DNA of 64,000 nt from positions 192,593-256,592 of the forward strand of contig CAYFMS010000002.1 of the NCBI GenBank assembly GCA_964344415.1, given 5' to 3'. Each line of letters begins with the position of its first letter. Positions within the stretch are counted from its first letter, which is position 1. Positions 1 to 56,994 of this stretch are shown here, piece by piece. Position numbers and translations under genes: made by a program. The DNA comes from an uncultured Gammaproteobacteria bacterium (GTDB lineage Bacteria; Patescibacteriota; Patescibacteriia; UBA9934). The notes below the pieces were generated by a model. That model was not told the DNA's origin and searched no databases. It saw only the letters and a list, made by a program, of their open reading frames with translations.

Positions 1-464
1 ACACCGTGAATGCCGATATCGGCAAAATAACCTTCGACGAATTGTAATGCAGCAGAGTTGACCTGCTTTCCAAAGCCTTGAAAACGCGCGACGCCGGTGT
101 CATTGAATGAACATCCATCACAAACGGCATATCCTGTTGCCCAATCGAGCTGTTTTTGTGTTGGATTATCGTCAAGAATCAAACTCTGCTCCTTTTGAAG
201 AAGAACGAGCAGCACTTTTGGGTTAATTCCAGCTTCTTGTGATGCATTCCAAACAATATCGAGCGCCGACATATGGTCGCCCTCCCAGTTCTTCGTTTCA
301 TATTCGCCAAGATATCCACGGTCCAAATGTCGCTTTACCTGATCTTTCGTAAGCGCTCTTTCATCGAGGAATTCACTATCAGATATAATAAATTCAGGAT
401 CAAAACTAAACGCAAATGCCGTTTGCGGCACAAGTAATGTTACTAACAGAGCGAAAATACTCAT
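1..464 (-). CDS. Hypothetical secreted protein with N-terminal signal peptide; its C-terminal part lies beyond the left edge of the window
   Basis: Reverse-strand ORF starts with ATG at 462-464 (MSIFALLVTLLVPQTAFA...) and stays open to position 1. The hydrophobic N-terminus is consistent with a signal peptide. It is absent from the ORF track because it is truncated by the window edge. Confidence 0.45.
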   Translation of the reverse strand, partial: MSIFALLVTLLVPQTAFAFSFDPEFIISDSEFLDERALTKDQVKRHLDRGYLGEYETKNWEGDHMSALDIVWNASQEAGINPKVLLVLLQKEQSLILDDNPTQKQLDWATGYAVCDGCSFNDTGVARFQGFGKQVNSAALQFVEGYFADIGIHG

Positions 465-38751: not shown

Positions 38752-39978
38752 TTACTCTGTTGGGATATTGTACCTCTTCATATACCACTGGAACATCGAC
38801 CGAATCCTGTCTTCATCGAGATCGAATGTTGTGGCATTGTATTTATGTGCACCACGTTTGTCCTTGCGGCCTTCCATCTCAGACTGCTTTTCGCGAATAC
38901 AGTCAGACCCCTTCAGGCCGATTTTTCCGTAGAGTTTCAGCGTTACAAAGAATTGTCTATCCTTGAAATCGCTGAAACGAATCATATGAAGTCGATTCAG
39001 AGATTCGGATTTTGACTCGAACTCCATAGCAGACTCGACAGCACCCATGAATCTCGCGAGGATATATGGCCCAATATTCTTGGGTTTCGCATCGCCAAAC
39101 ATCGACCGTCGCAACAGTGATGTAAGCGAGCTATATGACGGAATCACCTTTGCCGGGTCGCGATGCGTCCAAACAACGTGTGCATCTGGAAAGACCTCGA
39201 AGATCTCTTCCAAAAAACACAGATGATCTGGGCATTTCACGACGAGTCGTTTTGCATCTGGATTCTGGTGCAGGAGGATTTGATAGTTGAGCTTCAGTTC
39301 CTCGTATGCCCAGGTCTGATCCGTTTCCATAAGCCAATCACCAAACTCTGGTACCTCGAATTGCCAATCCTGATTCATGACGGCGAATTGCTGAGCCATC
39401 AAATGCCAGTCCTCTTCAAAGCTGTCCCAACGAACCTCGTGAATGTCCGACTGCTCAGGTGCGAGCGCATATGCGAGTCGCAGCACCATCCATGTACGAG
39501 CTTTGCGCCATAATCGGTCAAAGCGCCTCGGCCAATACGTCGGGAATGGATTTAAGAGCTCCCAGAATCGCGGTGCATACATGTCGGGATGAGCCGCAAT
39601 CAAGTTCTGAAGCGCCGTCGTCCCCGTGCGAGGGAATCCGACGATGAAGACGGGCGCGTCGATGCTGATCTCACGCACCTCGGGATACTTAGCGGCATAC
39701 TCCTCACGCATCTTCCGATTCTTCATCGCTTTGCGTGTGGAGATGTGAACCAAGACTCTACCGAGATTTGTGAGCGGTCGACCAGAAATCTGATCGAGCA
39801 ACTTATCCATCGCGTATACGTACGGATCTCCACGCGAGTGAAAACCGAAACGATCACGAAAATACGACGGCTCGAGAATCGTGAACCAGAAATTCCAGCG
39901 CACGAAAAAACCGAGAACCCAGTCAACAAATCTTTCAATACGCCCGTAGCGCATCGACTCTACTGTTTGCGTTTTCAT
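38752..39978 (-). CDS. Sulfotransferase-family protein (PAPS-dependent)
   Basis: 5'-PSB loop FIVGFPRTGTTALQNLIA and a sulfotransferase-domain layout; 408 aa. Confidence 0.7.
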   Translation of the reverse strand: MKTQTVESMRYGRIERFVDWVLGFFVRWNFWFTILEPSYFRDRFGFHSRGDPYVYAMDKLLDQISGRPLTNLGRVLVHISTRKAMKNRKMREEYAAKYPEVREISIDAPVFIVGFPRTGTTALQNLIAAHPDMYAPRFWELLNPFPTYWPRRFDRLWRKARTWMVLRLAYALAPEQSDIHEVRWDSFEEDWHLMAQQFAVMNQDWQFEVPEFGDWLMETDQTWAYEELKLNYQILLHQNPDAKRLVVKCPDHLCFLEEIFEVFPDAHVVWTHRDPAKVIPSYSSLTSLLRRSMFGDAKPKNIGPYILARFMGAVESAMEFESKSESLNRLHMIRFSDFKDRQFFVTLKLYGKIGLKGSDCIREKQSEMEGRKDKRGAHKYNATTFDLDEDRIRSMFQWYMKRYNIPTE

Positions 39979-47330: not shown

Positions 47331-50321
47331 TTAAGCATCAACATCGAGCTCTAGGCCCGCGCTCGTCATTTTAAAACCTTTAATATTAACCTCTCCGGCA
47401 TGTACTTTTTTATGGCAAGCCTTGCATAAAGGTACAAGATTGTATTTATGATCCTTGTGAAAATGCTTAATATGACCATGCTCATTGGCATTTTTTTGGG
47501 GGGCAATATGATGGATATCCGATATTATTCCACTACAAAGGGTACAACTTGTGGCATACAAATCGCTATTATAGGTATTAATCTGCTTGTTCGTTAACAA
47601 TGTTAAATCATCTTCTTCTTGAGCAATTTGCTGACGGATTTTGGCAGCTAAAGCGAGGAATTTCTTGTCCATATGCAAAGATTCCGCAAACTCCAAACCA
47701 TAGACACTGCTACCACTCCCGGCTTGTAATGTACGATCAAAAATCAATTTATCCGCTTGTTCATCGTAATGCACATGTAAATGCACACTCACCACTTGAG
47801 GTAGAGATTTCAACAGATCAATGTTATGCAGTTGATGTAGATGGGTGGTAAACATGAACAAAGATCCGATTTCCGAAAGACGCTGTATTGTCGCGGTTAC
47901 AATAGCTAGAGCGGATAGTGTTTCTGTACCTCGACTGATTTCATCACCTAATATGAGACTTTGAGCCGTTGATCGATTAAAAATATTCTTCATTTCCATC
48001 ATTTCCACCGCAAAAGAAGATAGTCCTTTTTCAAAGTTATCCCTTGCAATAATGCGAGTGAAGATTTCGTGGAAAAGAGTGAATCTCATTTGTTTGGCTG
48101 GAACATAAAAACCGCTCTGAGCCAAAATGACACAAATACCCAAGCTTTTCATGAGCGAAGACTTACCGCTCGAGTTAATTCCATATAATAAAACTCCACG
48201 CGTATCTTCATCCGTCATCTGCGCCATGGTGCAAGAAGCAATTGACGCTTCCTGCAATGACTTGTCGCCCATCACTACGTCATTTGGAACATAAATCCCA
48301 TTTTCTTCACGAGCTTCCACCAGTGGATGTCTAACCTCTAATAATTCTAAATACGACGTTTGCTCATGGCTCGTAATTATTTGCGGGCGAACTAAATTAT
48401 GCAGCAAAGAAGATTTGATATTCGAAAGGGCTACATCAATCTTTCCAATCGTCGTGATGAGCGTATTCATCAACTCAGAATATTGTGTATCGAGTCGCTC
48501 TAATTCAGTATGGAAAAAATTACGGACTAATGCAGAGATCTTTTTATTCAAGAGCGTAATTTGTTCAGAAATATCACCAATAATTTTTGCTGTGATTTTA
48601 ACATTGCCCGTTTGAATCTTTACCGTGAAATCGTTCAGTGCATACACCGTGCCATCAATCGAAACAAAGCTATCAGATAACATTTGTTCAATTAAAAAGT
48701 ACCTGCTTTTTGTGATTGAAATATGATGTCCTTCCTTTTCAAGATGCTTAATCACGACATAATCTCGTTCAGGTTTGCCGGTTTGTTGTTCAATCAAGTG
48801 GACAAATTCAGTCCTAATTGTTTCCAATTTCTCCTGAAGTTCATTCTTTTGCTTGATAAGACTATCGATCTCAGCATTAAATCCAGCTTGAAAAAAACTT
48901 TGACTAATTTCACCTTGTGAGTACTTGCTGGTTTCATCCAAATTGAAAATTGCTTCCAAATCAAGAATAGCTTTTTCGAGTAGTGGCTGCTGCTCGACAA
49001 GTTCCGGTAGAATCGACGAACCGTCAATACTGGCCAAATGCATTAAGATGCTTTTACTCGCAATCAAAGAATCATAGAGAAAATTGATTTCAAAAGGATG
49101 CAGGCGACCAAGCTGAATACGACGTTTTAAGCGATCAATATCATAAATATGTTTCAGTTCCGCATCGATTTCTGCATAGATAAAAATTAGCGCATCGGAA
49201 AGATCATAACGAGCTTCAAGCTCCGTTTGGTCAATGATTGGATTCATGAGCCGTTCCCTGAATAGGCGGCGACCAAGGCTGGTACGAGTATTATCGAAAA
49301 AACTTAATACGGTCTGTTCATTTGGGTTAGATGAAATAATATTGAGTTGCTCGAGTGGATTATTGCCCAAATATAGGAAGTTTTTGTCATTAATATGCTG
49401 TGGTTCGATAATATTTTTTACCACTTCCCTGTCATGCTCAATAATAAATTCAAGCAAAATTGCCAAAGCTTCCGCTGCCAAAGGTTTTTTCTCTAGGTTT
49501 AAATACTCAATCGACGACAAAAACGATTTAATTTCATAGCAATGTTTAAATAATTCATTCTGATAGCTAATAGATAAACGTTTATTGTCAGTATGAACAT
49601 TCAGACTCTCCGATAGCTCCAGATATTGCTGAACAGTTTCTGGAACAAGATCCTTACCTCCACATGTTAGGAGAACTTCATTTGGTTCATGTGATTTAAG
49701 TAAAGAAAAAAGCTGGTCTAATGCATACGTGGAGTCCTCCTGAGTGCTGTGGATTTCAAAAACTGAAGTTCTACCAGTGGTAACGTCAATTGCTGCATAG
49801 CCAACCGAGTAATTGTCCTTATGCTTCTCAACAATTAAAGAAGTGGTGAAATTGTCATCATTATTGAGAGTATATTCAAAGTTAACACCGGGAGATAAAA
49901 TATTGTCCAAGTAACGTGTTACATTTGGTGGTGCGCCTTTTTGCTTGATAATGACAATCGTGTATTTATTTTCGCGAATCAGTTTTTGAACATAGCGATC
50001 GAATGTGGCCGTAGGAAAACCAGCCATAAGTGGATTTTTGACATTGTTTTCCTGAATGTTTTTATTCTTTCGCGTTAATTGAATATTCAAAATTTCAGCA
50101 ATTTCTTTTGGTTTACCAATTTGCTTCGTCGCATTATCAACTCCGTAAATTTCAAAAAATGACCCGATTTCCATCAGCACAACTGTGTCAGTTCCATACT
50201 TTGCTTCGAACAGCTCTTGTAGCTGTAAATAGATGGCAATCAACGATTGATTCGTGTCATCGAGTAACTCCTGAACACGTGCTTGCATACCCATAATGCT
50301 CTGCATTTTATCAGCTCTCAC
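47331..50321 (-). CDS. MutS-family protein with C-terminal HNH endonuclease domain (MutS7-like architecture)
   Basis: N-terminal mismatch-binding-like domain I (VVLMEIGSFFEIYGVDNA). MutS ATPase domain V (LLYGINSSGKSSLMKSLG...ILGDEISRGTETLSALAI...FTTHLHQL). C-terminal HNH with CTLCSG...HHIAP...HG...N...LCKACHKKVH. 996 aa. Confidence 0.8.
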   Translation of the reverse strand: MRADKMQSIMGMQARVQELLDDTNQSLIAIYLQLQELFEAKYGTDTVVLMEIGSFFEIYGVDNATKQIGKPKEIAEILNIQLTRKNKNIQENNVKNPLMAGFPTATFDRYVQKLIRENKYTIVIIKQKGAPPNVTRYLDNILSPGVNFEYTLNNDDNFTTSLIVEKHKDNYSVGYAAIDVTTGRTSVFEIHSTQEDSTYALDQLFSLLKSHEPNEVLLTCGGKDLVPETVQQYLELSESLNVHTDNKRLSISYQNELFKHCYEIKSFLSSIEYLNLEKKPLAAEALAILLEFIIEHDREVVKNIIEPQHINDKNFLYLGNNPLEQLNIISSNPNEQTVLSFFDNTRTSLGRRLFRERLMNPIIDQTELEARYDLSDALIFIYAEIDAELKHIYDIDRLKRRIQLGRLHPFEINFLYDSLIASKSILMHLASIDGSSILPELVEQQPLLEKAILDLEAIFNLDETSKYSQGEISQSFFQAGFNAEIDSLIKQKNELQEKLETIRTEFVHLIEQQTGKPERDYVVIKHLEKEGHHISITKSRYFLIEQMLSDSFVSIDGTVYALNDFTVKIQTGNVKITAKIIGDISEQITLLNKKISALVRNFFHTELERLDTQYSELMNTLITTIGKIDVALSNIKSSLLHNLVRPQIITSHEQTSYLELLEVRHPLVEAREENGIYVPNDVVMGDKSLQEASIASCTMAQMTDEDTRGVLLYGINSSGKSSLMKSLGICVILAQSGFYVPAKQMRFTLFHEIFTRIIARDNFEKGLSSFAVEMMEMKNIFNRSTAQSLILGDEISRGTETLSALAIVTATIQRLSEIGSLFMFTTHLHQLHNIDLLKSLPQVVSVHLHVHYDEQADKLIFDRTLQAGSGSSVYGLEFAESLHMDKKFLALAAKIRQQIAQEEDDLTLLTNKQINTYNSDLYATSCTLCSGIISDIHHIAPQKNANEHGHIKHFHKDHKYNLVPLCKACHKKVHAGEVNIKGFKMTSAGLELDVDA

Positions 50322-50376: not shown

Positions 50377-50542
50377 TGGCTCTGGGGGTGATATATAGCC
50401 TCGCTCTATACAAACCTTCGGTTTGACCGCTCGGCAGGATCCCACCCCAGCATCTGTTCCATGAATACCTAGAACATCTGCACAGCCTGACGGCTGTTAA
50501 GCCAAAAGAAAACAACCCTGACGGGTTGCATTCTTTTGGCTC
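50377..50542. repeat. 166-bp direct repeat DR1; begins with a 14-nt copy (tggctctgggggtg) of the tRNA-Asn 3' terminus
   Basis: 3 mismatches in 166 bp versus 56100-56265. Internally it holds a nested hairpin gccaaaagaa...(aaccc tgac gggtt)...ttcttttggc. Confidence 0.85.
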
Positions 50543-50590
50543 CCCGTGTTACATGATTACCGAACTGGTGGATGTGTATCAGATGGTGCA
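50522..50590. repeat. Degenerate tRNA-3'-half-like remnant R1 (ttggctccc...gattaccgaactggtgg)
   Basis: About 70% similar to 52212-52280. It resembles the tRNA-Asn acceptor/T-loop segment (tggctc...ggattcgaaccc) on the same strand. Confidence 0.4.
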
Positions 50591-50880
50591 AAAAAGTATG
50601 AACCGGATTAATGGTTGATCTTTTGTGTCGAATGTAAGCGTGTAAATGATGTCAGAACATTTAAGAACTATAGGGGGTGACCCCCATCCCATGGCCTGGA
50701 TATAACTTATTGTTACGCTCACCGGTTAAAATACAACAATCAACAACCTGAACCCGCTGTTATTTGCGATAGGTCAGGCAAATTATAGTGATCCTTTTTA
50801 TTCTGTATATATTAAAAACCTCCGTAGCTCAGTTGGAGCAATGGAGGTTACGACCCTGTCGTCGGCAGGATCAGATGAGT

Positions 50881-52071
50881 TTACGCAGATTTGCGCCTAC
50901 GGGCATCGAAAATGGCGTCGATCACCGCATCTGTCTTTGGACGGCGGTGTGAGTAAATCTCGTCAGCCATCTCTGGGACCTTGTTTGCTAGGCGCTGAAG
51001 ATCGTCTTCTTTCAAAGTGAAACGTTCGATCAGGCACCGAACAGCTTCTTCCATTCGGACCTGTGTGCGTATGCATAGCCACAGGGCGCGTTCGCTTGCG
51101 ATGTTCAGATCTATGAGACTTGCTGCTTGTTTACGGTATTCAAGACTGCGTCCAAAGTCGAGAATTTCAGCAAGACAATCCGGATCCGTGCAGTTACGCC
51201 GAAGCAACTCTTCGCTAGCAATGTCGCTAAATCCGCTTAACACGGTAGTAGACAAGACCACGTCACTTGGATCAAGAGAGAGAAAGGTCTGCCACAGCAT
51301 TTCATCGAGCTCTCGTACTTTACGAAACCACTTTGCAAAAACGACAGGGTCATCGCAACCGTTGAAGAGCTTCTGTTTGGCGTCTTCACGGAGCTCTTCG
51401 CTCATATTACCGATCCAAAGAAGTTGATCTTCGCTGAAGTTGTGGTCACGCAGAAACCGACGCGCTCGATCCAGTAGCTCCGGAACCCTTGCGATATCCT
51501 TTAGCTCGTACATCCCGATCCCCCTGACTTCTAGTATCTGCCAGGCCTGTTCCCTGAATTCTGGACAGTGTATCGCCACACGAGTCAGGTGCGTGAGGTC
51601 TACTACATCAAGCTTGAGCTGTTTCCATGCACGTCCACGCAGGTCTGTAAAATGTCTCATGATCTGCGTGACTGCCCAGTTACAGCGAAGTCGACGCGGA
51701 TCGGCCCTGCCGAGCAACCAATTCGTGAAACGTTCCCACAACGTAAGCTCGAGATCCTCGAGGTAGTCGAGAACCGCTTCGGCAATGGATCGCGTGCTCG
51801 GCAGATCGTTGTCAATGGAAATCGCTAGATCGGTGCCGTTCATATCCGCCGCCATCAGTTGCGCCGCGTGTTGACGGAACAGCGAGCATCCTCGCACCAC
51901 ATCTCTCAGCGTATGACAGTTGATACCTTGAATCAAGGTTAATCGCCAGGCTTCCCGACAAATGTGTTCAGGAACATCGTCCCGAACGAAGTAGCTGTAG
52001 TGCCAGTTCTTGGCTCCAGGTTCGCTGTTGAGTAGCGCAGTCCAGAGTTCCTCTGCTGTTTGTTCGTCCAT
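50881..52071 (-). CDS. Hypothetical protein (396 aa), all-alpha, Trp/Leu/Arg-rich; compositionally foreign (GC-rich) gene
   Basis: The ORF is visibly much GC-richer than its flanks (which resemble the rest of the window), and several spurious antisense ORFs co-occur in it. No recognisable catalytic motifs. Confidence 0.5.
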   Translation of the reverse strand: MDEQTAEELWTALLNSEPGAKNWHYSYFVRDDVPEHICREAWRLTLIQGINCHTLRDVVRGCSLFRQHAAQLMAADMNGTDLAISIDNDLPSTRSIAEAVLDYLEDLELTLWERFTNWLLGRADPRRLRCNWAVTQIMRHFTDLRGRAWKQLKLDVVDLTHLTRVAIHCPEFREQAWQILEVRGIGMYELKDIARVPELLDRARRFLRDHNFSEDQLLWIGNMSEELREDAKQKLFNGCDDPVVFAKWFRKVRELDEMLWQTFLSLDPSDVVLSTTVLSGFSDIASEELLRRNCTDPDCLAEILDFGRSLEYRKQAASLIDLNIASERALWLCIRTQVRMEEAVRCLIERFTLKEDDLQRLANKVPEMADEIYSHRRPKTDAVIDAIFDARRRKSA

Positions 52072-52211
52072 TCGGCCTCCAAAAGAGCATTGTAAAATTT
52101 TTAATTCGTGTGAGTATTTTGAACGCTCAACGAATAAATTATAGCAAGAATATACTTATGTCAATAAAAGGTCAGGCTTAGCACAGCCAAATAAAAATCC
52201 TCCGCACAAGA

Positions 52212-52280
52212 CGGTGAATTTTTATTGGCTCCCAACATTACGTGTTTACCGAACTGGTGAGTATCTACCAAGCGGTGAAG
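52212..52280. repeat. Degenerate tRNA-3'-half-like remnant R2
   Basis: ttggctcccaacattacgtgtttaccgaactggtgagtat, similar to R1; same orientation. Confidence 0.4.
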
Positions 52281-52314
52281 TTGAGCATGCCACGCATTCA
52301 AAGCTGTATGTTCG

Positions 52315-52965
52315 CTATTTCGCAATAAGATGTTTATCAAACCCTTGATCAACAAGATGCTGGTAGGCCTCTAATACGTTGTCTGGTATTTCTTGCGAGA
52401 TCTGGAACCCCTTATCAGGGTATTCGATGATTCTTTGAAGATCGCCAACCATAATGTTTACAAAAGCATCTGTATCAATCGATCCATCATCATAGTCTTC
52501 AAAGTTCAGCTCTGGAGATGCAAGAATCAATTCTTTCTCAGGCCAATGCACTTTTCCAGTTGCATACGCACGGCGCTCCATATACGGCTTCGTGACAATA
52601 ATCGCACTTGAAAATTCGATGCCTTTTTCTGTGAGCAGCTCACCACTCAGTTTGAAGTTGTCGCCAGTATTTCGCGCTTCTTTCTCAAGAATGATGCTGT
52701 CATCCGGAACTCCCGCCTTTATCATCACATCAGCAAACTCTTCCGCCTCAGTTCGTTTCCATCCAGTATCAAGTAGGTCGCCAATGTGAGCCATGCCACC
52801 AGAAACGACTACTATGGGTGCTAAACCTTTTTTGAACAAATCAGCAGCATACTCTGCTACACGGATATCGTGACTACCTAAAACAAGGATAATGTCAGCC
52901 TTCTCAAGCAACTGATTGAGTTGATGATATTTGTAGAGCAATTTCGCGCTTTCCGCTATATCCAT
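52315..52965 (-). CDS. DUF218/YdcF-family protein
   Basis: ADIILVLGSHDIRVAEYAADLFKKGLAPIVVVSGG is the canonical DUF218 core. 216 aa; last gene of a 5-gene minus-strand operon. Confidence 0.65.
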   Translation of the reverse strand: MDIAESAKLLYKYHQLNQLLEKADIILVLGSHDIRVAEYAADLFKKGLAPIVVVSGGMAHIGDLLDTGWKRTEAEEFADVMIKAGVPDDSIILEKEARNTGDNFKLSGELLTEKGIEFSSAIIVTKPYMERRAYATGKVHWPEKELILASPELNFEDYDDGSIDTDAFVNIMVGDLQRIIEYPDKGFQISQEIPDNVLEAYQHLVDQGFDKHLIAK

Positions 52966-52966
52966 A

Positions 52967-53320
52967 CTAGAAATCTTCTTTGAAGTCTGCTTGAATCGAG
53001 AGTTCCTCTCCCTTTTTTATATCTCTCAAAGCAACATCAGCATCTAGCTCGTAGTCCACGTATACATTCGGGTCTTCGTATCGATTTACGTGTCGTTCTG
53101 GGTCTGGGTAGTAATAAATGATTCCATATCTTTTGTGTGTAAAGTGTTTCTCAGACGCAGGAAGATTCTTGAACTCTTCTTCCGTGAGAGTCTTCAAATT
53201 GTACTGAATCACCACTTCACCCTTCTTGAAATCTCGAAACGCAAATACACCAAGCCCATCATTGAATTGACCAATGCCAGACTCCCTAATTTCAACATCT
53301 CCGAAAATTTGTTTATTCAT
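52967..53320 (-). CDS. SET-domain protein (small bacterial SET, putative lysine methyltransferase)
   Basis: GLGVFAFRDFKKGEVV (SET-N), HVNRYEDPNV (NHSCxPN-like) and EELSIQADFKE (post-SET-like ELTFDY). The start is set at internal MNKQIFGD, which avoids overlap with the upstream gene. Confidence 0.55.
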   Translation of the reverse strand: MNKQIFGDVEIRESGIGQFNDGLGVFAFRDFKKGEVVIQYNLKTLTEEEFKNLPASEKHFTHKRYGIIYYYPDPERHVNRYEDPNVYVDYELDADVALRDIKKGEELSIQADFKEDF

Positions 53321-53336
53321 AGTACTGGTTAGTATA

Positions 53337-54287
53337 TCAACTACTTGAGAGAGAAAAATCCTTGTACATAAGGTCACATAAACAATCATGAAGCCTATTC
53401 ATATTCTCAACATCCTCTCTGGTGAATGTATGGTTAGGAGAAAGTGATGCACCGTGAACAAGGCCCTTGTTATTTCTTAGATGATTCCATGCATGTACAT
53501 GGCTTAAATAATATCCAAATCCTTTTCCAAGACTCTTTAAAAACTCCTGCACCCTATCCTTTGTTACACCTTTGTTATTTATATTTCCGGGCGTCAACTT
53601 TCTTTTTAAAGCTTTTTTCTGTGAGTCAGACAAACCCAACTCCTCAATCTGTAAGACCGTATTTTCTATAATGCTATTCAACTTACTCCAATTAGCACTT
53701 TCTTTTCTTTTATCGACAATGGAGGTTTTTACACTTTCTGTTTTAGATAAATGCTCTATTAGAGCATACTCACTCATAAATCTAACATCAGCAATTGCAA
53801 GGGTATTGATTTGAAGCATTGGGAGTAGCATTTTTCTAAAAAAATGACTCTCTTTTAGTCGGGCTAGTCCGTGCTCAATGGTCGCTACAGGATGAGCGAA
53901 TAGATGTTTTCTATTTCTATTGATTTGACAACCTCCTCCTAGGTTGAAATTTTTTGGAATAGCAGAGAATGGAAAATCATTGTTATGAAATAAAATGGTC
54001 ACATTATCAGCCAGTAAATATGATAGTACGAGTGAGATTCTCCATAGTAAATCCTTATCTTCATCCTCTAATGTTACAGTCAGAACTAATGTGTTGTACC
54101 GAACAAGCTGCAGCTCAAGCTCTCCCTTAAAGATATTAAAGGTGAACTGCGTTCCGGTGTTAAGCACTTCTTTCTGCTTGCTTGGAATACTACCTAACTC
54201 ATATTTCATTTTCAGCAACTTACCAGTCTCCTCAAGATAAATCTGTCGCTCTCTGTGTAGATTGAACAAGTTGCGCACCTCGGGCAT
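53337..54287 (-). CDS. Hypothetical protein (316 aa) with C-terminal Rx6H (HEPN-like) motif; candidate Abi/HEPN-type protein
   Basis: C-terminal SHVHAWNHLRNNKGLVHGASL contains R-x6-H, as in HEPN nuclease motifs. No other family recognised. Third gene of the operon. Confidence 0.35.
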   Translation of the reverse strand: MPEVRNLFNLHRERQIYLEETGKLLKMKYELGSIPSKQKEVLNTGTQFTFNIFKGELELQLVRYNTLVLTVTLEDEDKDLLWRISLVLSYLLADNVTILFHNNDFPFSAIPKNFNLGGGCQINRNRKHLFAHPVATIEHGLARLKESHFFRKMLLPMLQINTLAIADVRFMSEYALIEHLSKTESVKTSIVDKRKESANWSKLNSIIENTVLQIEELGLSDSQKKALKRKLTPGNINNKGVTKDRVQEFLKSLGKGFGYYLSHVHAWNHLRNNKGLVHGASLSPNHTFTREDVENMNRLHDCLCDLMYKDFSLSSS

Positions 54288-54302
54288 ACAAGTTTACAAG
54301 CA

Positions 54303-55196
54303 CTATACTGCTTGATGGTTTGATGAATACTTATCTGTCAGCAAAGTAACAGCACCTTCATTGAAGAAGAAATACAAGTTTCCGTTTGAACGTGTAGAGA
54401 ATACCTTTCCGAGGTACTCCTGTTTATTATCAATCGTGTTGTAGCGTAAACCTCCGGCGTATGAAGAATATTGAGAAGCAATATCCGTACCCTGTTTCTC
54501 TGATTCTGATGCTTTTGACAGCACAATAGCACCAACCTCTCCCGTTAAATCAAAAAGAGATTTAGGAAATCCAGATTTATGGCCGTGATGAGGTGCCACC
54601 AGAATGTCTAAGCCATTTTTCATTGTTCTAATAAAATCCTTGTCATTGGCTGCAAGCCAGTCCCATCCAGCCTGCTCAAGGTCACCACCAAATAGAATAC
54701 GAACGTTTCCATACCTCACGTACCTCAAGATGCTAGAGTTATTTTTCTGTTTATCATTGAGCTCCGAATTGCTCTTAACCTGATGCATTGGGATGAGGAA
54801 GACTCTGTTTTCGTGAAATCCCCAGCCGTCGAACTTAATTGAGGCACCTCGATATCGTAAATCGATATGGTTTTTATATTCGTCATGAATATTTTCACCA
54901 ACATCAAATGATTCATGTCGTCTACGGTGAACGAGGTAAGGCGACAATTTTTCAGAAACCTTTTTCGCATTCTTTACATGGTCATCATCTGGATGGGTAA
55001 CGTGCAGTAGCGTTAGGTCGTACCCATTATAACTTTTCATTTTCAAAAAACTGTCCTTCAAGTGAAGCACTCGGTCTACGGGGCAATCCTTTTCCGCGTT
55101 ACTTCCACAATCAATCATCATGCTATATCCGTTTGGACAAACACATAGATTGCATGCAGCGTTATTTACATCAAAGACAACTAATTTTGCACTCAT
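54303..55196 (-). CDS. Standalone ComEC/Rec2-type metallo-beta-lactamase-fold nuclease domain protein
   Basis: Matches the ComEC C-terminal domain pattern: VFDVNNAACNLCV...MMIDCGS, LLHVTHPDDDHV (HxDxDH), ILFGGDLE and ILVAPHHGHKSG (PHHGS motif). The start is set at internal MSAKL, which gives an ATGA overlap with the upstream membrane-protein gene. Confidence 0.7.
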   Translation of the reverse strand: MSAKLVVFDVNNAACNLCVCPNGYSMMIDCGSNAEKDCPVDRVLHLKDSFLKMKSYNGYDLTLLHVTHPDDDHVKNAKKVSEKLSPYLVHRRRHESFDVGENIHDEYKNHIDLRYRGASIKFDGWGFHENRVFLIPMHQVKSNSELNDKQKNNSSILRYVRYGNVRILFGGDLEQAGWDWLAANDKDFIRTMKNGLDILVAPHHGHKSGFPKSLFDLTGEVGAIVLSKASESEKQGTDIASQYSSYAGGLRYNTIDNKQEYLGKVFSTRSNGNLYFFFNEGAVTLLTDKYSSNHQAV

Positions 55197-55858
55197 ATCT
55201 TTCTCTTTAAATTCAACTGAATAATTTTGTGTACCAATCCTCTTGCAACTCCACGGGCTCTCCAGAGAAAAATTAGTGCTATAGCGAAAGCAATGACGCT
55301 TAGTTCTCGATAATCCTGAGTAAATAAAAGCAAGCCAACAAGCAAGAAGACGAGGAAGATTACGCGACAAAAAAGATACGAAGCGTTCGACTGAACTATT
55401 TCTGAAGTGCTGGAAACCTTGCTATATAGCCTCCAAAATATGCTCTGTGACAAATCGTCAGCCTGCTTTGTATCATCGCCCTTAAAGATGAGAGGAATAT
55501 CTGAATACTCTCGGTCAATCAAAGCTCTTTCGTTTGTATTAAGGTCAAGCAACTTCAACAACTCTTCACGTTTGTAATCACTCTTGAGTACAGGGTTCTG
55601 CTTATATAAAAAGACCTTGGAAGGCCTTCTCATGCGAAAGAAAATATCAACAAAAAATTCAAGGGAGTGGGCAAGTGTTTGTAAAACTTCGCCGGCAATA
55701 AAAGCGGCACAAAAGAATAGGAAAGTATAAAGAAAGTCTAAGTCCTGATTAAAGTACACGGAAAACGTTTCGCTATATAGTGCCAGTGCCACTCCTAGCA
55801 GGAGACCGCCCGGCATAACTCTAATCATTAAGTCTTCAAAACTGAATTTGTCCAACAT
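55193..55858 (-). CDS. Hypothetical membrane protein (221 aa, 2+2 TM), first gene of the island operon
   Basis: Hydrophobic helices at both ends with a charged central region; its stop overlaps the MBL-gene start (ATGA). Confidence 0.4.
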   Translation of the reverse strand: MLDKFSFEDLMIRVMPGGLLLGVALALYSETFSVYFNQDLDFLYTFLFFCAAFIAGEVLQTLAHSLEFFVDIFFRMRRPSKVFLYKQNPVLKSDYKREELLKLLDLNTNERALIDREYSDIPLIFKGDDTKQADDLSQSIFWRLYSKVSSTSEIVQSNASYLFCRVIFLVFLLVGLLLFTQDYRELSVIAFAIALIFLWRARGVARGLVHKIIQLNLKRKI

Positions 55859-56099: not shown

Positions 56100-56265
56100 T
56101 GGCTCTGGGGGTGATATATAGCCTCGCTCTATACAAACCTTTGGTTTGACCGCTCGGCAGGATCCCACCCCAGCATCTGTTCCATAAATACCCAGAACAT
56201 CTGCACAGCCTGACGGCTGTTAAGCCAAAAGAAAACAACCCTGACGGGTTGCATTCTTTTGGCTC
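56100..56265. repeat. 166-bp direct repeat DR2, immediately abutting (6-nt overlap) the tRNA-Asn 3' end
   Basis: Near-identical to DR1. The layout is ...tggctctgggggtg-DR body-ttttggctc | tgggggtgggattcgaaccc (tRNA). Confidence 0.85.
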
Positions 56266-56616
56266 TGGGGGTGGGATTCGAACCCACGACCAATTGGTTA
56301 CACGTAATCCTATAGTTTCCTATAAGCATGGACTATATCATCATCCTTCTCAATGAGTGAGGATGCGAGGCGCTTCGAGTCTTGCGACCCTACTCCATAA
56401 AGGATAGTCTCTGAACCGGCCTTCGCCAAGGCTTCGTCCGACAGGTCTTCCTGCTCGGTCCTTGATGAAGGATTGGCTGCTGATTGCCATATTCTTTCGA
56501 ATGAAGGTTTCCAGCAATTCACCTCGTTTTCATTCCACTGTTTCCAGTGGAAGCTGCGTTAGGCGCTCGATTGAGCTGTGCCACAGCCAACTGCTCTGCC
56601 ACTGAGCTACCCCAGA
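56260..56616 (-). tRNA. tRNA-Asn(GUU) interrupted by a group I intron in the anticodon loop (exons 56584-56616 and 56260-56300)
   Basis: 5' exon TCTGGGGTAGCTCAGTGGCAGAGCAGTTGGCTGT. 3' exon TAACCAATTGGTCGTGGGTTCGAATCCCACCCCCAGAGCCA. The spliced product has a canonical cloverleaf with anticodon loop CUGUUAA and a T-arm GTGGG-TTCGAAT-CCCAC, with CCA encoded. It is close to bacterial tRNA-Asn sequences. Confidence 0.8.
56301..56582 (-). ncRNA. Group I self-splicing intron (282 nt) inserted between anticodon positions 35 and 36 of tRNA-Asn
   Basis: Conserved group I core elements are present. P-like GAAUUGCUGGAAA, Q-like AAUCAGCAGCC, R GUUCAGAGACUA, S AUAUAGUCC. A P2 hairpin has a GAAA tetraloop (CCACUG-GAAA-CAGUGG). 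A P9 hairpin has a GAAA tetraloop (CUUAUAG-GAAA-CUAUAGG). The intron ends in a G (omegaG). The 5' exon ends in U with a candidate IGS GCAGCU. Confidence 0.75.
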
Positions 56617-56858
56617 TTATTATCTCGTATTCGTTTTAGAAACTCTTTTCCGTAGCCCGATTTTAGGTATCTTTCCCTTGCTCGCGCCGAGGGTCTATCA
56701 GTTACCTGTTCGGTGTACAGCAGAGTCCATGGTCGGTAGGCTTTCGTAGAAGAAACCCTACCAGCGTTGTGCTCCGATATTCTACGTTCGATATTTCCTG
56801 AAAAGCCCACATAAATTCTACCATCATGTTGACTTGCAATTGCGTAAACGTGATACAT
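56607..56858 (-). CDS. GIY-YIG nuclease-domain protein (UPF0213/YhbQ-like, 83 aa)
   Basis: YHVYAIASQHDGRIYVGFSGNIERRISEHNAG...KAYRPWTLLYTEQ...ARARERYLKS matches the GIY-YIG (GIY...YVG...R...H...E) YhbQ-type pattern. Its last 10 nt overlap the 5' end of tRNA-Asn. Confidence 0.7.
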   Translation of the reverse strand: MYHVYAIASQHDGRIYVGFSGNIERRISEHNAGRVSSTKAYRPWTLLYTEQVTDRPSARARERYLKSGYGKEFLKRIRDNNLG

Positions 56859-56873
56859 ATTTTGTTAACTGCT

Positions 56874-56894
56874 CCCTGCCTGCCGGCAGGCAGG
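56874..56894. repeat. Perfect GC-rich palindrome ccctgcctgccggcaggcagg(g), copy 1
   Basis: Inverted repeat seen directly in sequence. A second, complete copy lies at 60183-60204. Confidence 0.7.
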
Positions 56895-56914
56895 TGCCAC
56901 TGAGCTACCCCAGA
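56895..56914 (-). repeat. Duplicated 20-nt fragment of the tRNA-Asn 5' end (tgccactgagctaccccaga)
   Basis: Identical to 56597-56616 (tRNA positions 1-20). It lies 280 bp upstream of the real tRNA start, on the far side of the GIY-YIG ORF. Confidence 0.7.
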
Positions 56915-56994
56915 ATTTCAAATTGTGAACATTTTTCAAAAGAACGGTGACGAAATGGTATCATGCATTTTAGTAATCGTCAATAATTTATTCT

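Follow-up and report, generated by a model that had tools for sequence, protein, structure and literature searches.

A GC-rich orphan gene for a predicted α-solenoid protein in an island at a bacterial tRNA-Asn gene

The ORF396 gene and its locus

We analysed a 64,000-nucleotide (nt) stretch of DNA (contig CAYFMS010000002.1, positions 192,593 to 256,592), hereinafter the window, which is part of a 768-kb metagenome contig. Genes for DnaG, ClpB, GltX, PBP2, and an AddA-type helicase mark it as bacterial chromosome. Its open reading frame (ORF) listing contains an uninterrupted ORF of 396 codons on the minus strand, here designated ORF396. ORF396 was probably acquired horizontally from a gene pool of higher guanine-plus-cytosine (GC) content. 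It would form a single-gene compartment of a composite island at the 3’ end of a tRNA-Asn gene, and its product is probably of a scaffold type.

The locus is described in the direction of the gene, which is that of the minus strand. Specifically, the tRNA-Asn gene is followed by a direct repeat (DR1), five cargo genes, repeat R, a promoter-like site, ORF396, a terminator, a spacer, repeat L running into a second direct repeat (DR2), a hairpin, and the gene for MutS. The spacer between the ORF396 terminator and repeat L is AT-rich and ~200 nt long. The features of the locus are as follows.

56260..56616, minus strand: tRNA-Asn(GTT) gene, the integration target, with exons 56616->56583 and 56300->56260 (Rfam intron match and ARAGORN on the spliced sequence)
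56100..56265, minus strand: DR1, a 166-nt direct repeat opening with GAGCCA, the six final bases of tRNA-Asn (repeat alignment)
52315..55858, minus strand: other island cargo of host-like GC, namely genes for a DUF218 protein, a SET-domain protein, a 316-amino-acid (aa) protein, a metallo-β-lactamase (MBL)-fold protein, and a 221-aa membrane protein (Pfam, PADLOC, and NCBIfam)
52187..52300, minus strand: repeat R, between the DUF218 gene and the ORF396 promoter; a 22-nt box CACCAGTTCGGTAAACACGTAA, then ..GGGAGCCA, then a long A/T-armed hairpin (alignment, fold)
52138..52164, minus strand: promoter-like site, TTGACA (52164->52159), a 15-nt spacer, and an extended −10 element TGCTATAAT (52146->52138) (read from the sequence)
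52076..52080, minus strand: Shine-Dalgarno sequence GGAGG, 4 nt before the ATG (read from the sequence)
50881..52071, minus strand: ORF396, gene for a 396-aa orphan protein, a predicted α-solenoid of ~13 two-helix repeats (ORF, GC at third codon positions, homologues, AlphaFold2, hhalign)
50812..50873, minus strand: two hairpins just past the ORF396 stop codon, the second of which (50849->50817) is terminator-like with a T-run (RNA fold)
50497..50612, minus strand: repeat L, the same 22-nt box with two substitutions, then ..GGGGAGCCA and a hairpin; DR2 begins in its distal part (alignment, fold)
50377..50542, minus strand: DR2, a 166-nt direct repeat made up of GAGCCA, two hairpins, and a pseudo-tRNA-like unit ending in CACCCCCAGAGCCA (repeat alignment)
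47331..50321, minus strand: gene for MutS with an HNH-like tail, flanking the far side of the insertion (Pfam, comparison with a related genome)

An exhaustive HMMER pass over 1.84 billion protein representatives returned two homologues that are full-length and colinear with ORF396, namely P0002 (397 aa, 44% identity, E=5e-101) and P0003 (406 aa, 27% identity, E=1e-22). The family has three members among ~15 billion proteins. Word-indexed searches (5.8 billion clusters) returned the query alone, or the query and P0003. The three-way alignment contains 72 invariant columns along its whole length, mostly Leu, Trp, Arg, Glu, Asp, Pro, and Ala, and has no invariant His, Cys, or Lys; this conservation pattern rests on three sequences.

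The signals around the gene point in the same direction. GGAGG is found 4–5 nt ahead of the start codon in all three family genes, and the 3’ hairpins of ORF396 fold with −25.4 kcal/mol (z=−3.7). The site at 52138..52164 is a putative promoter, which is absent from the promoter-scan list because the scan requires a spacer of 16–18 nt. An independent Logan assembly of the same run matches 56129-50513 at 100% identity and breaks only inside long repeats.

ORF396 could in principle be spurious or decaying, a GC-rich non-coding fragment or a pseudogene that stays open by chance. GC-rich DNA in a low-GC genome does give long open frames, and antisense shadow ORFs of 136 and 108 aa are present. However, the homologues are colinear over their full length, Trp, Leu, and Arg positions are conserved from end to end, the alignment-driven fold is confident (predicted local distance difference test, pLDDT, 85.2), and a Shine-Dalgarno sequence precedes all three genes. 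The homologues, the conservation pattern, and the fold rule out a pseudogene or spurious ORF, and together with the Shine-Dalgarno sequences and the independent assembly they leave such a reading next to no probability. A disrupted or non-conserved ORF would have spoken against the initial annotation of this DNA; the frame is intact and conserved. ORF396 is best explained as a functional, probably monocistronic gene with its own promoter-like site, Shine-Dalgarno sequence, and terminator.

Base composition and origin of ORF396

The GC content of ORF396 is 0.520, compared with 0.414 for the window. The difference is larger at third codon positions (GC3), where ORF396 has 0.549 and the 44 other ORFs of the window have a mean of 0.359 (standard deviation 0.047; z=4.0). 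The Karlin codon-bias distance of ORF396 to the pooled genes is B=0.442, compared with 0.292±0.076, which places it third of 45; only two short ORFs, both in the same island, rank above it. Codons CTG/CTC, GCG/GCC, CCG, ACG, AGC, GTC, and ATC are enriched, while TTA, AGA, TCA, ACA, and GCT are depleted. The shift is spread across amino acids, with both G-ending and C-ending codons enriched. Counted over 100 nt at a time, GC is 0.46–0.58 across ORF396, 0.31–0.38 in the promoter-side flank, and 0.36–0.46 in the 3’ flank. The GC step begins at the start codon and overruns the stop codon by ~20–30 nt, into the first 3’ hairpin. Thus the ORF is, as the initial annotation had described it, much richer in GC than its flanks, and its GC3 and codon usage differ significantly from those of its neighbours.

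The only other window gene with comparable GC3 encodes a sulfotransferase (38752..39978, minus strand, 408 aa; Sulfotransfer_3, E=1e-33). It has GC of 0.496 and GC3 of 0.570, and is a second compositionally foreign gene. The tRNA-Asn 3’-end motif CACCCCCAGAGCCA, with up to 3 mismatches allowed, was not found near it.

The two homologues lie in contigs of different composition. P0002 is encoded on a 55% GC contig (L003), where its GC3 of 0.70 falls within the range of its neighbours (0.59–0.70). P0003 is encoded on a contig of ~42% GC (L004), where its GC3 of 0.63 stands against 0.29–0.41 for five neighbours, and the GC step coincides with the gene, as it does for ORF396. Because P0002 fits its 55% GC context while the gene is a GC3 outlier in both low-GC contigs, the family looks native to a higher-GC pool, from which it would have entered low-GC genomes at least twice.

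ORF396 as a native gene, GC-rich through its amino-acid composition or through expression-linked codon choice, would require no transfer. Its composition, rich in Arg, Ala, Asp, Glu, Leu, and Trp, does lift GC at first codon positions to 0.615. However, the excess is greatest at third positions and affects G- and C-ending codons alike, and the same GC3 anomaly is seen in the unrelated contig of P0003. ORF396 also lies within a repeat-bounded insertion that the sister locus in the metagenome-assembled genome (MAG) L005, described below, lacks at this site. In addition, a peptide-pattern scan of 185,579 GTDB species-representative genomes, the L005 MAG among them, found no ORF396 relative, the method reaching close relatives only. 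A native origin is very improbable.

Independent acquisition from a higher-GC source, as proposed in the initial annotation, thus appears well supported by the GC3 excess, the 55% GC context of P0002, the repeat-bounded compartment, and the absence of the cargo from the L005 site. The nearest relative lies in a 55% GC contig, but a donor lineage could not be named. The family alignment had no relative in scans of JGI metagenomes or IMG/VR, and searches of phage and plasmid DNA returned no matching record.

Fold and family of the ORF396 protein

The ORF396 protein is rich in Leu (12.9%), Arg (10.4%), and Trp (3.0%), as had been noticed at the outset. It is acidic, with an isoelectric point of 5.3 and a net charge of about −13. 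Hydropathy analysis shows no hydrophobic or transmembrane segment and no signal peptide (maximum Kyte-Doolittle 19-residue mean of 1.10, acidic N-terminus). Together with the model described below, this suggests a soluble acidic α-solenoid.

AlphaFold2 run on the single sequence gave a model with pLDDT of 51, which was left out of the fold search. With the three-sequence alignment, pLDDT rose to 85.2, with a predicted template modelling score of 0.68. The resulting model is an all-helical solenoid, in which ~29 helices are arranged as ~13 helical hairpins of 28–31 aa each. Consistent with the model, the sequence contains an internal repeat: residues 37–60 align with residues 172–195 with a score of 47, compared with a shuffle maximum of 29. 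A 28-residue period joins 134/162 and 143/171, with motifs LRGRAWKQL and EFREQAWQIL.

The protein has no match in Pfam, NCBIfam, PADLOC, or PHROGs. Specifically, PHROGs gave no family match for any of the three proteins, and in Pfam ORF396 has no match at E≤0.01, P0002 has none at E≤1, and P0003 has only an insignificant match to DUF5717 (E=0.19). The HEAT, ARM, TPR, PPR, Sel1, and ankyrin repeat families of Pfam give no significant profile match to ORF396. This agrees with the initial annotation, which had recognised no enzymatic motif and had predicted an all-helical, possibly helical-repeat protein; the latter is borne out by the model and by the profile match to other repeat proteins given below.

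Searches for a relative of known structure gave a similar picture. Neither the single protein nor the family profile returned anything meaningful from PDB sequences. The sole sub-threshold profile match, the designed toroid dTor, was rejected as a homologue, its score being a sum of stretches each with E>50. Foldseek with the alignment-based model returned nothing below E=0.001 from PDB or BFVD. Its top-ranking neighbours (E ~1e-2, TM-score 0.2–0.38) comprise a designed circular repeat protein, the mitoribosomal small-subunit PPR protein, proteins of the TPR/ARM type, and ankyrin or unknown proteins of giant viruses. The resemblance to the PPR, ankyrin, and giant-virus proteins is that of generic solenoids, and these were rejected as relatives too. 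ORF396 shares with α-solenoids (HEAT/ARM, TPR, PPR; dTor, 5byo; cTRP, 7rdr) an architecture of tandem two-helix repeats of ~28–31 residues. Its repeat signature, ELRxxAW...L, is distinct from those of the named families.

The signature does recur in more distant proteins. Weaker HMMER matches (P0004–P0008, E 9e-7 to 5e-4, among 1.8 billion proteins) are metagenome proteins composed of regular ‘VPELRxxAWxxLL...PsxxdLxxIi’ two-helix repeats. Alignment of the ORF396 family profile with that of P0005–P0008 by hhalign gave 98.8% probability and E=1.1e-16 over 180 columns, covering residues 4–210, and an N-terminal ‘LW..LL...P’ cap is common to both groups. Among the PELRxxAW proteins, length varies, the repeats are regular and easy to recognise, and an additional transmembrane or C-terminal domain is present in some. 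In contrast, the repeats of the ORF396 family are degenerate, and its three proteins are colinear throughout, like one fixed-length domain.

The ORF396 family is probably a divergent, remotely related branch of this uncharacterised repeat superfamily. By its sequence, then, ORF396 appears to belong to none of the named repeat families but to the unnamed PELRxxAW superfamily. The superfamily is not in Pfam, and the neighbourhoods of the five distant relatives have no gene in common; therefore, the relationship gives a fold class and transfers no annotation. Structure prediction and remote-homology search thus yielded a confident solenoid and a link to this superfamily only. The family is nevertheless of interest as a very rare, confidently folding, and unannotated family of three members that can be tied to a wider uncharacterised superfamily.

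Because of its fold class, its lack of catalytic-type invariant residues, and the occurrence of its gene as a stand-alone unit in three contexts, the product is most likely a non-enzymatic scaffold for protein–protein binding. Orphan α-solenoid proteins are frequent island cargo.

The island, its repeats, and routes of acquisition

Between DR1 and DR2 there are 3 mismatches in 166 positions (98% identity), and an exact 66-mer is common to both. Like DR2, DR1 comprises two hairpins and a pseudo-tRNA-like unit ending in CACCCCCAGAGCCA, a sequence that occurs exactly at 56260, 56100, and 50377. The pseudo-tRNA-like units (56100-56176 and 50377-50453, minus strand) begin with the 5’ acceptor strand of tRNA-Asn, CTGGGGT, and end with ACCCCCAGAGCCA. 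Their predicted acceptor-type stem is intact, their interior is unrelated, and ARAGORN does not call them.

The comparison genome is a ‘Candidatus Uhrbacteria’ MAG, L005, whose MutS is 89% identical to that of the window and whose tRNA-Asn gene is 90–94% identical. Because of these identities, the host of the window is probably a bacterium of the Candidate Phyla Radiation (CPR)/Patescibacteria, Uhrbacteria-like. In a blastn comparison with L005 alone, similarity stops at 50382 and resumes only at tRNA-Asn. The L005 gap between tRNA-Asn and MutS holds 5.4 kb of unrelated genes and none of the window’s cargo. Given the DR pair and the different cargo in L005, the 5.9 kb that separates tRNA-Asn from MutS in the window is an insertion, and this gap is a hot spot for integration. 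The L005 insert resembles an intact integrative element that occupies the same hot spot. Specifically, it encodes a 520-aa large serine recombinase (L005 4499-6061, minus strand; Resolvase, Recombinase, and Zn-ribbon domains), the gene for which overlaps the tRNA-Asn 3’ half with its 3’ end. A scar of the form ‘..GCGGGAGCCA + hairpin’, with a GGGAGCCA-type end, lies just upstream of MutS (L005 9930-9990). No strain variants with an empty site or an ORF396-free island were found; look-ups of the exact DUF218 and MutS proteins returned the same genome only.

MutS of the window comprises domains I, II, III, and V and a C-terminal Cys/His-rich HNH-like tail (weak Pfam matches to HNH and DUF968). 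Its relatives are scattered, with 89% identity in the Uhrbacteria MAG, 56% in a ‘Gammaproteobacteria’ MAG, 52% in Nomurabacteria, and 45% in Sulfurimonas. The tRNA-Asn gene of L005 (4466-4540) is an intron-less allele.

Within the insertion, ORF396 is bracketed by repeats R and L, which are ~110 nt long and ~75% identical; their local alignment score was reached by none of 2000 shuffles. An exact 14-mer, TTACCGAACTGGTG, is common to both and occurs at these two sites only in the window. Their 22-nt box has the consensus CACCAGTTCGGTAAnCAyGTAA, which was not found in the other fetched loci or in viral contigs. At the end of both repeats, G(G/A)GAGCCA precedes a long terminator hairpin with A/T arms; GAGCCA corresponds to the final six bases of tRNA-Asn, whose CCA is encoded. 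The hairpin stems of R and L differ through compensatory changes. Repeat L runs directly into DR2 (50542->50377), which is a 98%-identical copy of the downstream flank of tRNA-Asn. In total, the locus has five ‘GAGCCA + hairpin’ junctions (56260, 56100, ~52232, ~50537, and 50377), and L005 has two more.

The initial annotation had placed ORF396 between two degenerate tRNA 3’-half copies of roughly 60 bp. The flanking repeats are significant and, as tRNA-related remnants, do carry the tRNA terminus GAGCCA with a terminator, but they are ~110 nt long and otherwise not demonstrably like a tRNA. Upstream of GAGCCA, the similarity of R and L to the 3’ half of tRNA-Asn is not significant (shuffle p = 0.82 and 0.37, respectively), and the Rfam tRNA model has no match to either at E≤10; their reading as tRNA 3’-half copies is thus not supported in that part. 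The tRNA-derived part of R and L appears to be the 3’ terminus plus the terminator, with no recognisable 3’ half.

Genomic islands at tRNA genes, with a displaced tRNA fragment at the far end, are well known (PMC4383910). In Patescibacteria, islands and individually transferred genes have been documented, making up to 13% of genome length (PMC12455944). The ORF396 locus has the features of a tRNA-linked island save for an integrase. Like islands of the Islander/TIGER type, it lies immediately 3’ of a tRNA gene, has a tRNA 3’-end direct repeat at its distal boundary, carries cargo that varies between related genomes (one comparison genome), and is partly atypical in cargo composition. An island of this kind is expected to encode its own integrase, usually a tyrosine integrase. 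In contrast, no recombinase, transposase, or conjugation gene was found among the island ORFs of the window in Pfam, PADLOC, or NCBIfam, and the recombinase that abuts the tRNA gene at the L005 sister site is a large serine recombinase. The ORF396 island is also unlike known islands in that its 166-nt repeat lies nearly all downstream of the tRNA (6-nt overlap) and includes a pseudo-tRNA-like unit, and in that the island is tiny (5.9 kb) and split internally by further tRNA-end/terminator scars.

The arrangement of the repeats suggests a nested acquisition. Site-specific recombination would have brought elements into the tRNA-Asn end, either one after another or as a nested composite, and each integration would have left a tRNA-end/terminator scar. 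The recombinase would later have been lost from the island, or would act in trans. The ORF396 module would come from a different source than the adjacent host-like cargo, and R and L would be a second, older ‘GAGCCA + terminator hairpin’ pair nested inside the insertion. Because R and L are 25% diverged and the outer pair only 2%, we infer that the ORF396 module joined the island before the composite last moved or duplicated here. If so, the locus provides a precisely delimited nested horizontal acquisition in an ultra-small genome, with a tRNA-Asn hot spot, mapped scars, and a one-gene compartment from another gene pool. As the evidence stands, ORF396 is a well-documented yet ordinary island cargo gene.

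Several points weigh against this account. The host assignment comes mainly from one gene, MutS, plus the tRNA, and MutS may itself be mobile because no other protein matches L005 at high identity, the next best having 52%. As the island has no recombinase, the mechanism of its mobility is drawn from the sister locus only. The ~75% identity of R and L, compared with 98% for the outer repeats, may mean that the module joined the island elsewhere, long ago. All three family members come from metagenome contigs without taxonomy and point to no named donor. The proposed scaffold role draws on fold class and on the absence of catalytic-type invariant residues in three sequences, rather than on a positive match.

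ORF396 is probably an accessory gene and possibly a conflict-related one. An explicit version of the latter makes it a component of a conflict system, in which the solenoid would be an immunity, anti-defence, or defence-sensor protein that acts with or against the defence-like genes of the island. Helical-repeat architecture is frequent among immunity proteins and sensors, the distribution of the family is patchy and its divergence fast, and the gene lies in a variable tRNA-linked island near a PDC-M48B-like MBL-fold protein (E=6e-22). However, terminator hairpins on both sides insulate its transcription, no toxin gene is adjacent, neither PADLOC nor PHROGs has a match, and the homologues occur in unrelated, non-defence contexts. 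Specifically, one homologue context contains ribonucleotide reductase (RNR) and CobA, the other is a neighbourhood of tRNA-Gln and cobalamin-uptake type, and no partner gene is conserved across the three family contexts. A conflict-system role is thus rather unlikely. The effector or immunity-type function that the initial annotation had considered possible is neither borne out nor refuted by the lack of a signal peptide or transmembrane segment, of a conserved partner gene, and of matches to defence or phage families.

The MBL-fold protein (54303-55370, minus strand) matches the candidate defence family PDC-M48B of PADLOC and has weaker matches to the 6A-MBL, LmuA, and Avs1a models. Its neighbours are the 316-aa protein (53337-54287), which has no match, and the 221-aa membrane protein (55193-55858), which has a weak match to Csx27. 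The three genes may form a small defence module in the island.

The 3’ hairpin of ORF396 raises a further alternative. This hairpin (50849->50817) is nested, with the structure CCTCC-3nt-GCTC-loop-GAGC-3nt-GGAGG followed by a T-run, a motif that did not occur in shuffles of the window. It is found twice in the contig of P0002, once after the P0002 gene and once upstream, inside a 64-nt direct repeat (52/64 identical). Promoter, ORF396, and nested hairpin might therefore make up a self-contained mobile cassette, inserted near terminator hairpins or tRNA ends by a trans-acting recombinase that is integron-like or hairpin-targeted. GC-richness in each low-GC host would then reflect a high-GC mobile reservoir. 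In favour of such a cassette, two of the three family members lie between hairpin-containing direct repeats (R and L in the window, the 64-nt repeat in L003), GC3 of the gene is high in the two low-GC hosts, none of the family genes has a conserved neighbour, and the nested hairpins of the window and L003 are ~76% identical, compared with only 44% for the proteins. However, the two loci have repeats of unrelated sequence, there is neither an integron integrase nor an attC-type site, and the family has three members only, one of which (P0003) is followed by a plain terminator without a nested hairpin, on a contig that ends 176 nt past the gene. With three members, the nested hairpin could equally be a terminator type that the genomes share. 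Of 10 loci that the hairpin motif retrieved from metagenomes, seven contain one and the same unrelated 31-nt palindrome, CCCTCCTTCGCTCCTACGGAGCTACGGAGGG, with no T-run; a viral scan returned nothing. A self-contained cassette is accordingly improbable.

In integron gene cassettes, as at ORF396, a single ORF lies between imperfect hairpin-forming repeats in a cargo array. Integrons have IntI and attI/attC, none of which is found at ORF396, and the window ORFs scanned with Pfam and PADLOC contain no recombinase domain. Unlike an integron cassette, ORF396 has its own promoter-like site and is flanked by repeats whose ends combine a tRNA 3’ terminus with an intrinsic terminator. A bolder form of the cassette model takes the ORF396 family and its nested hairpin for a minimal single-gene cassette on an unsampled high-GC reservoir, repeatedly dropped by trans-acting recombinases beside terminator hairpins and tRNA ends of ultra-small CPR-type genomes. 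The flanking repeats would be insertion scars, the protein would be a selfish or conflict-related solenoid, and the whole would be an integron-like system without an integron. This is a long shot. If it were true that the GC3 excess and the conserved 3’ hairpin mark a dedicated mobility mechanism, they would point to a new route for single genes between reduced genomes.

The palindrome CCCTCCTTCGCTCCTACGGAGCTACGGAGGG is identical in seven otherwise unrelated JGI metagenome contigs (L011, L013, and L016–L020), and appears to be a widespread repeat element unrelated to ORF396. On the contig of P0002, a tRNA-Gln(TTG) gene (1-72, minus strand) is cut by the contig end. Just past the P0002 terminator (1860-2040), a putative cobalamin-riboswitch-like leader, judged by eye, precedes DUF4430/DUF6580 genes.

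The tRNA-Asn gene of the window is itself interrupted. A 282-nt group I intron (56301-56582; RF00028, 83.9 bits) splits its anticodon loop, and the gene was missed by default ARAGORN because of this intron. Joined at 56583|56300, the exons give a 75-nt tRNA-Asn with encoded CCA, as called by ARAGORN on the spliced sequence. On the 5’ side, an 83-aa GIY-YIG ORF (56607-56858, minus strand; Pfam E=8e-17) has its stop codon inside the tRNA-Asn 5’ end. It is bracketed by two copies of the first 19 bases of tRNA-Asn, CTGGGGTAGCTCAGTGGCA (56598-56950), the upstream one of which is followed by a 20-nt palindrome, CCTGCCTGCCGGCAGGCAGG. A single tRNA-Asn gene thus has an insertion at its 5’ end, an intron in its middle, and an island at its 3’ end.

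Between the ORF396 terminator and repeat L, a promoter-like TATACA-16-TATAAT sequence (50809->50782, minus strand) is followed ~100 nt further on by a GGGGGTCACCCCC hairpin with a T-rich tail (50685->50673). The region 50673-50809 (minus strand) could give rise to a small transcript; ORFs of 50 codons or more are absent from its gene strand.

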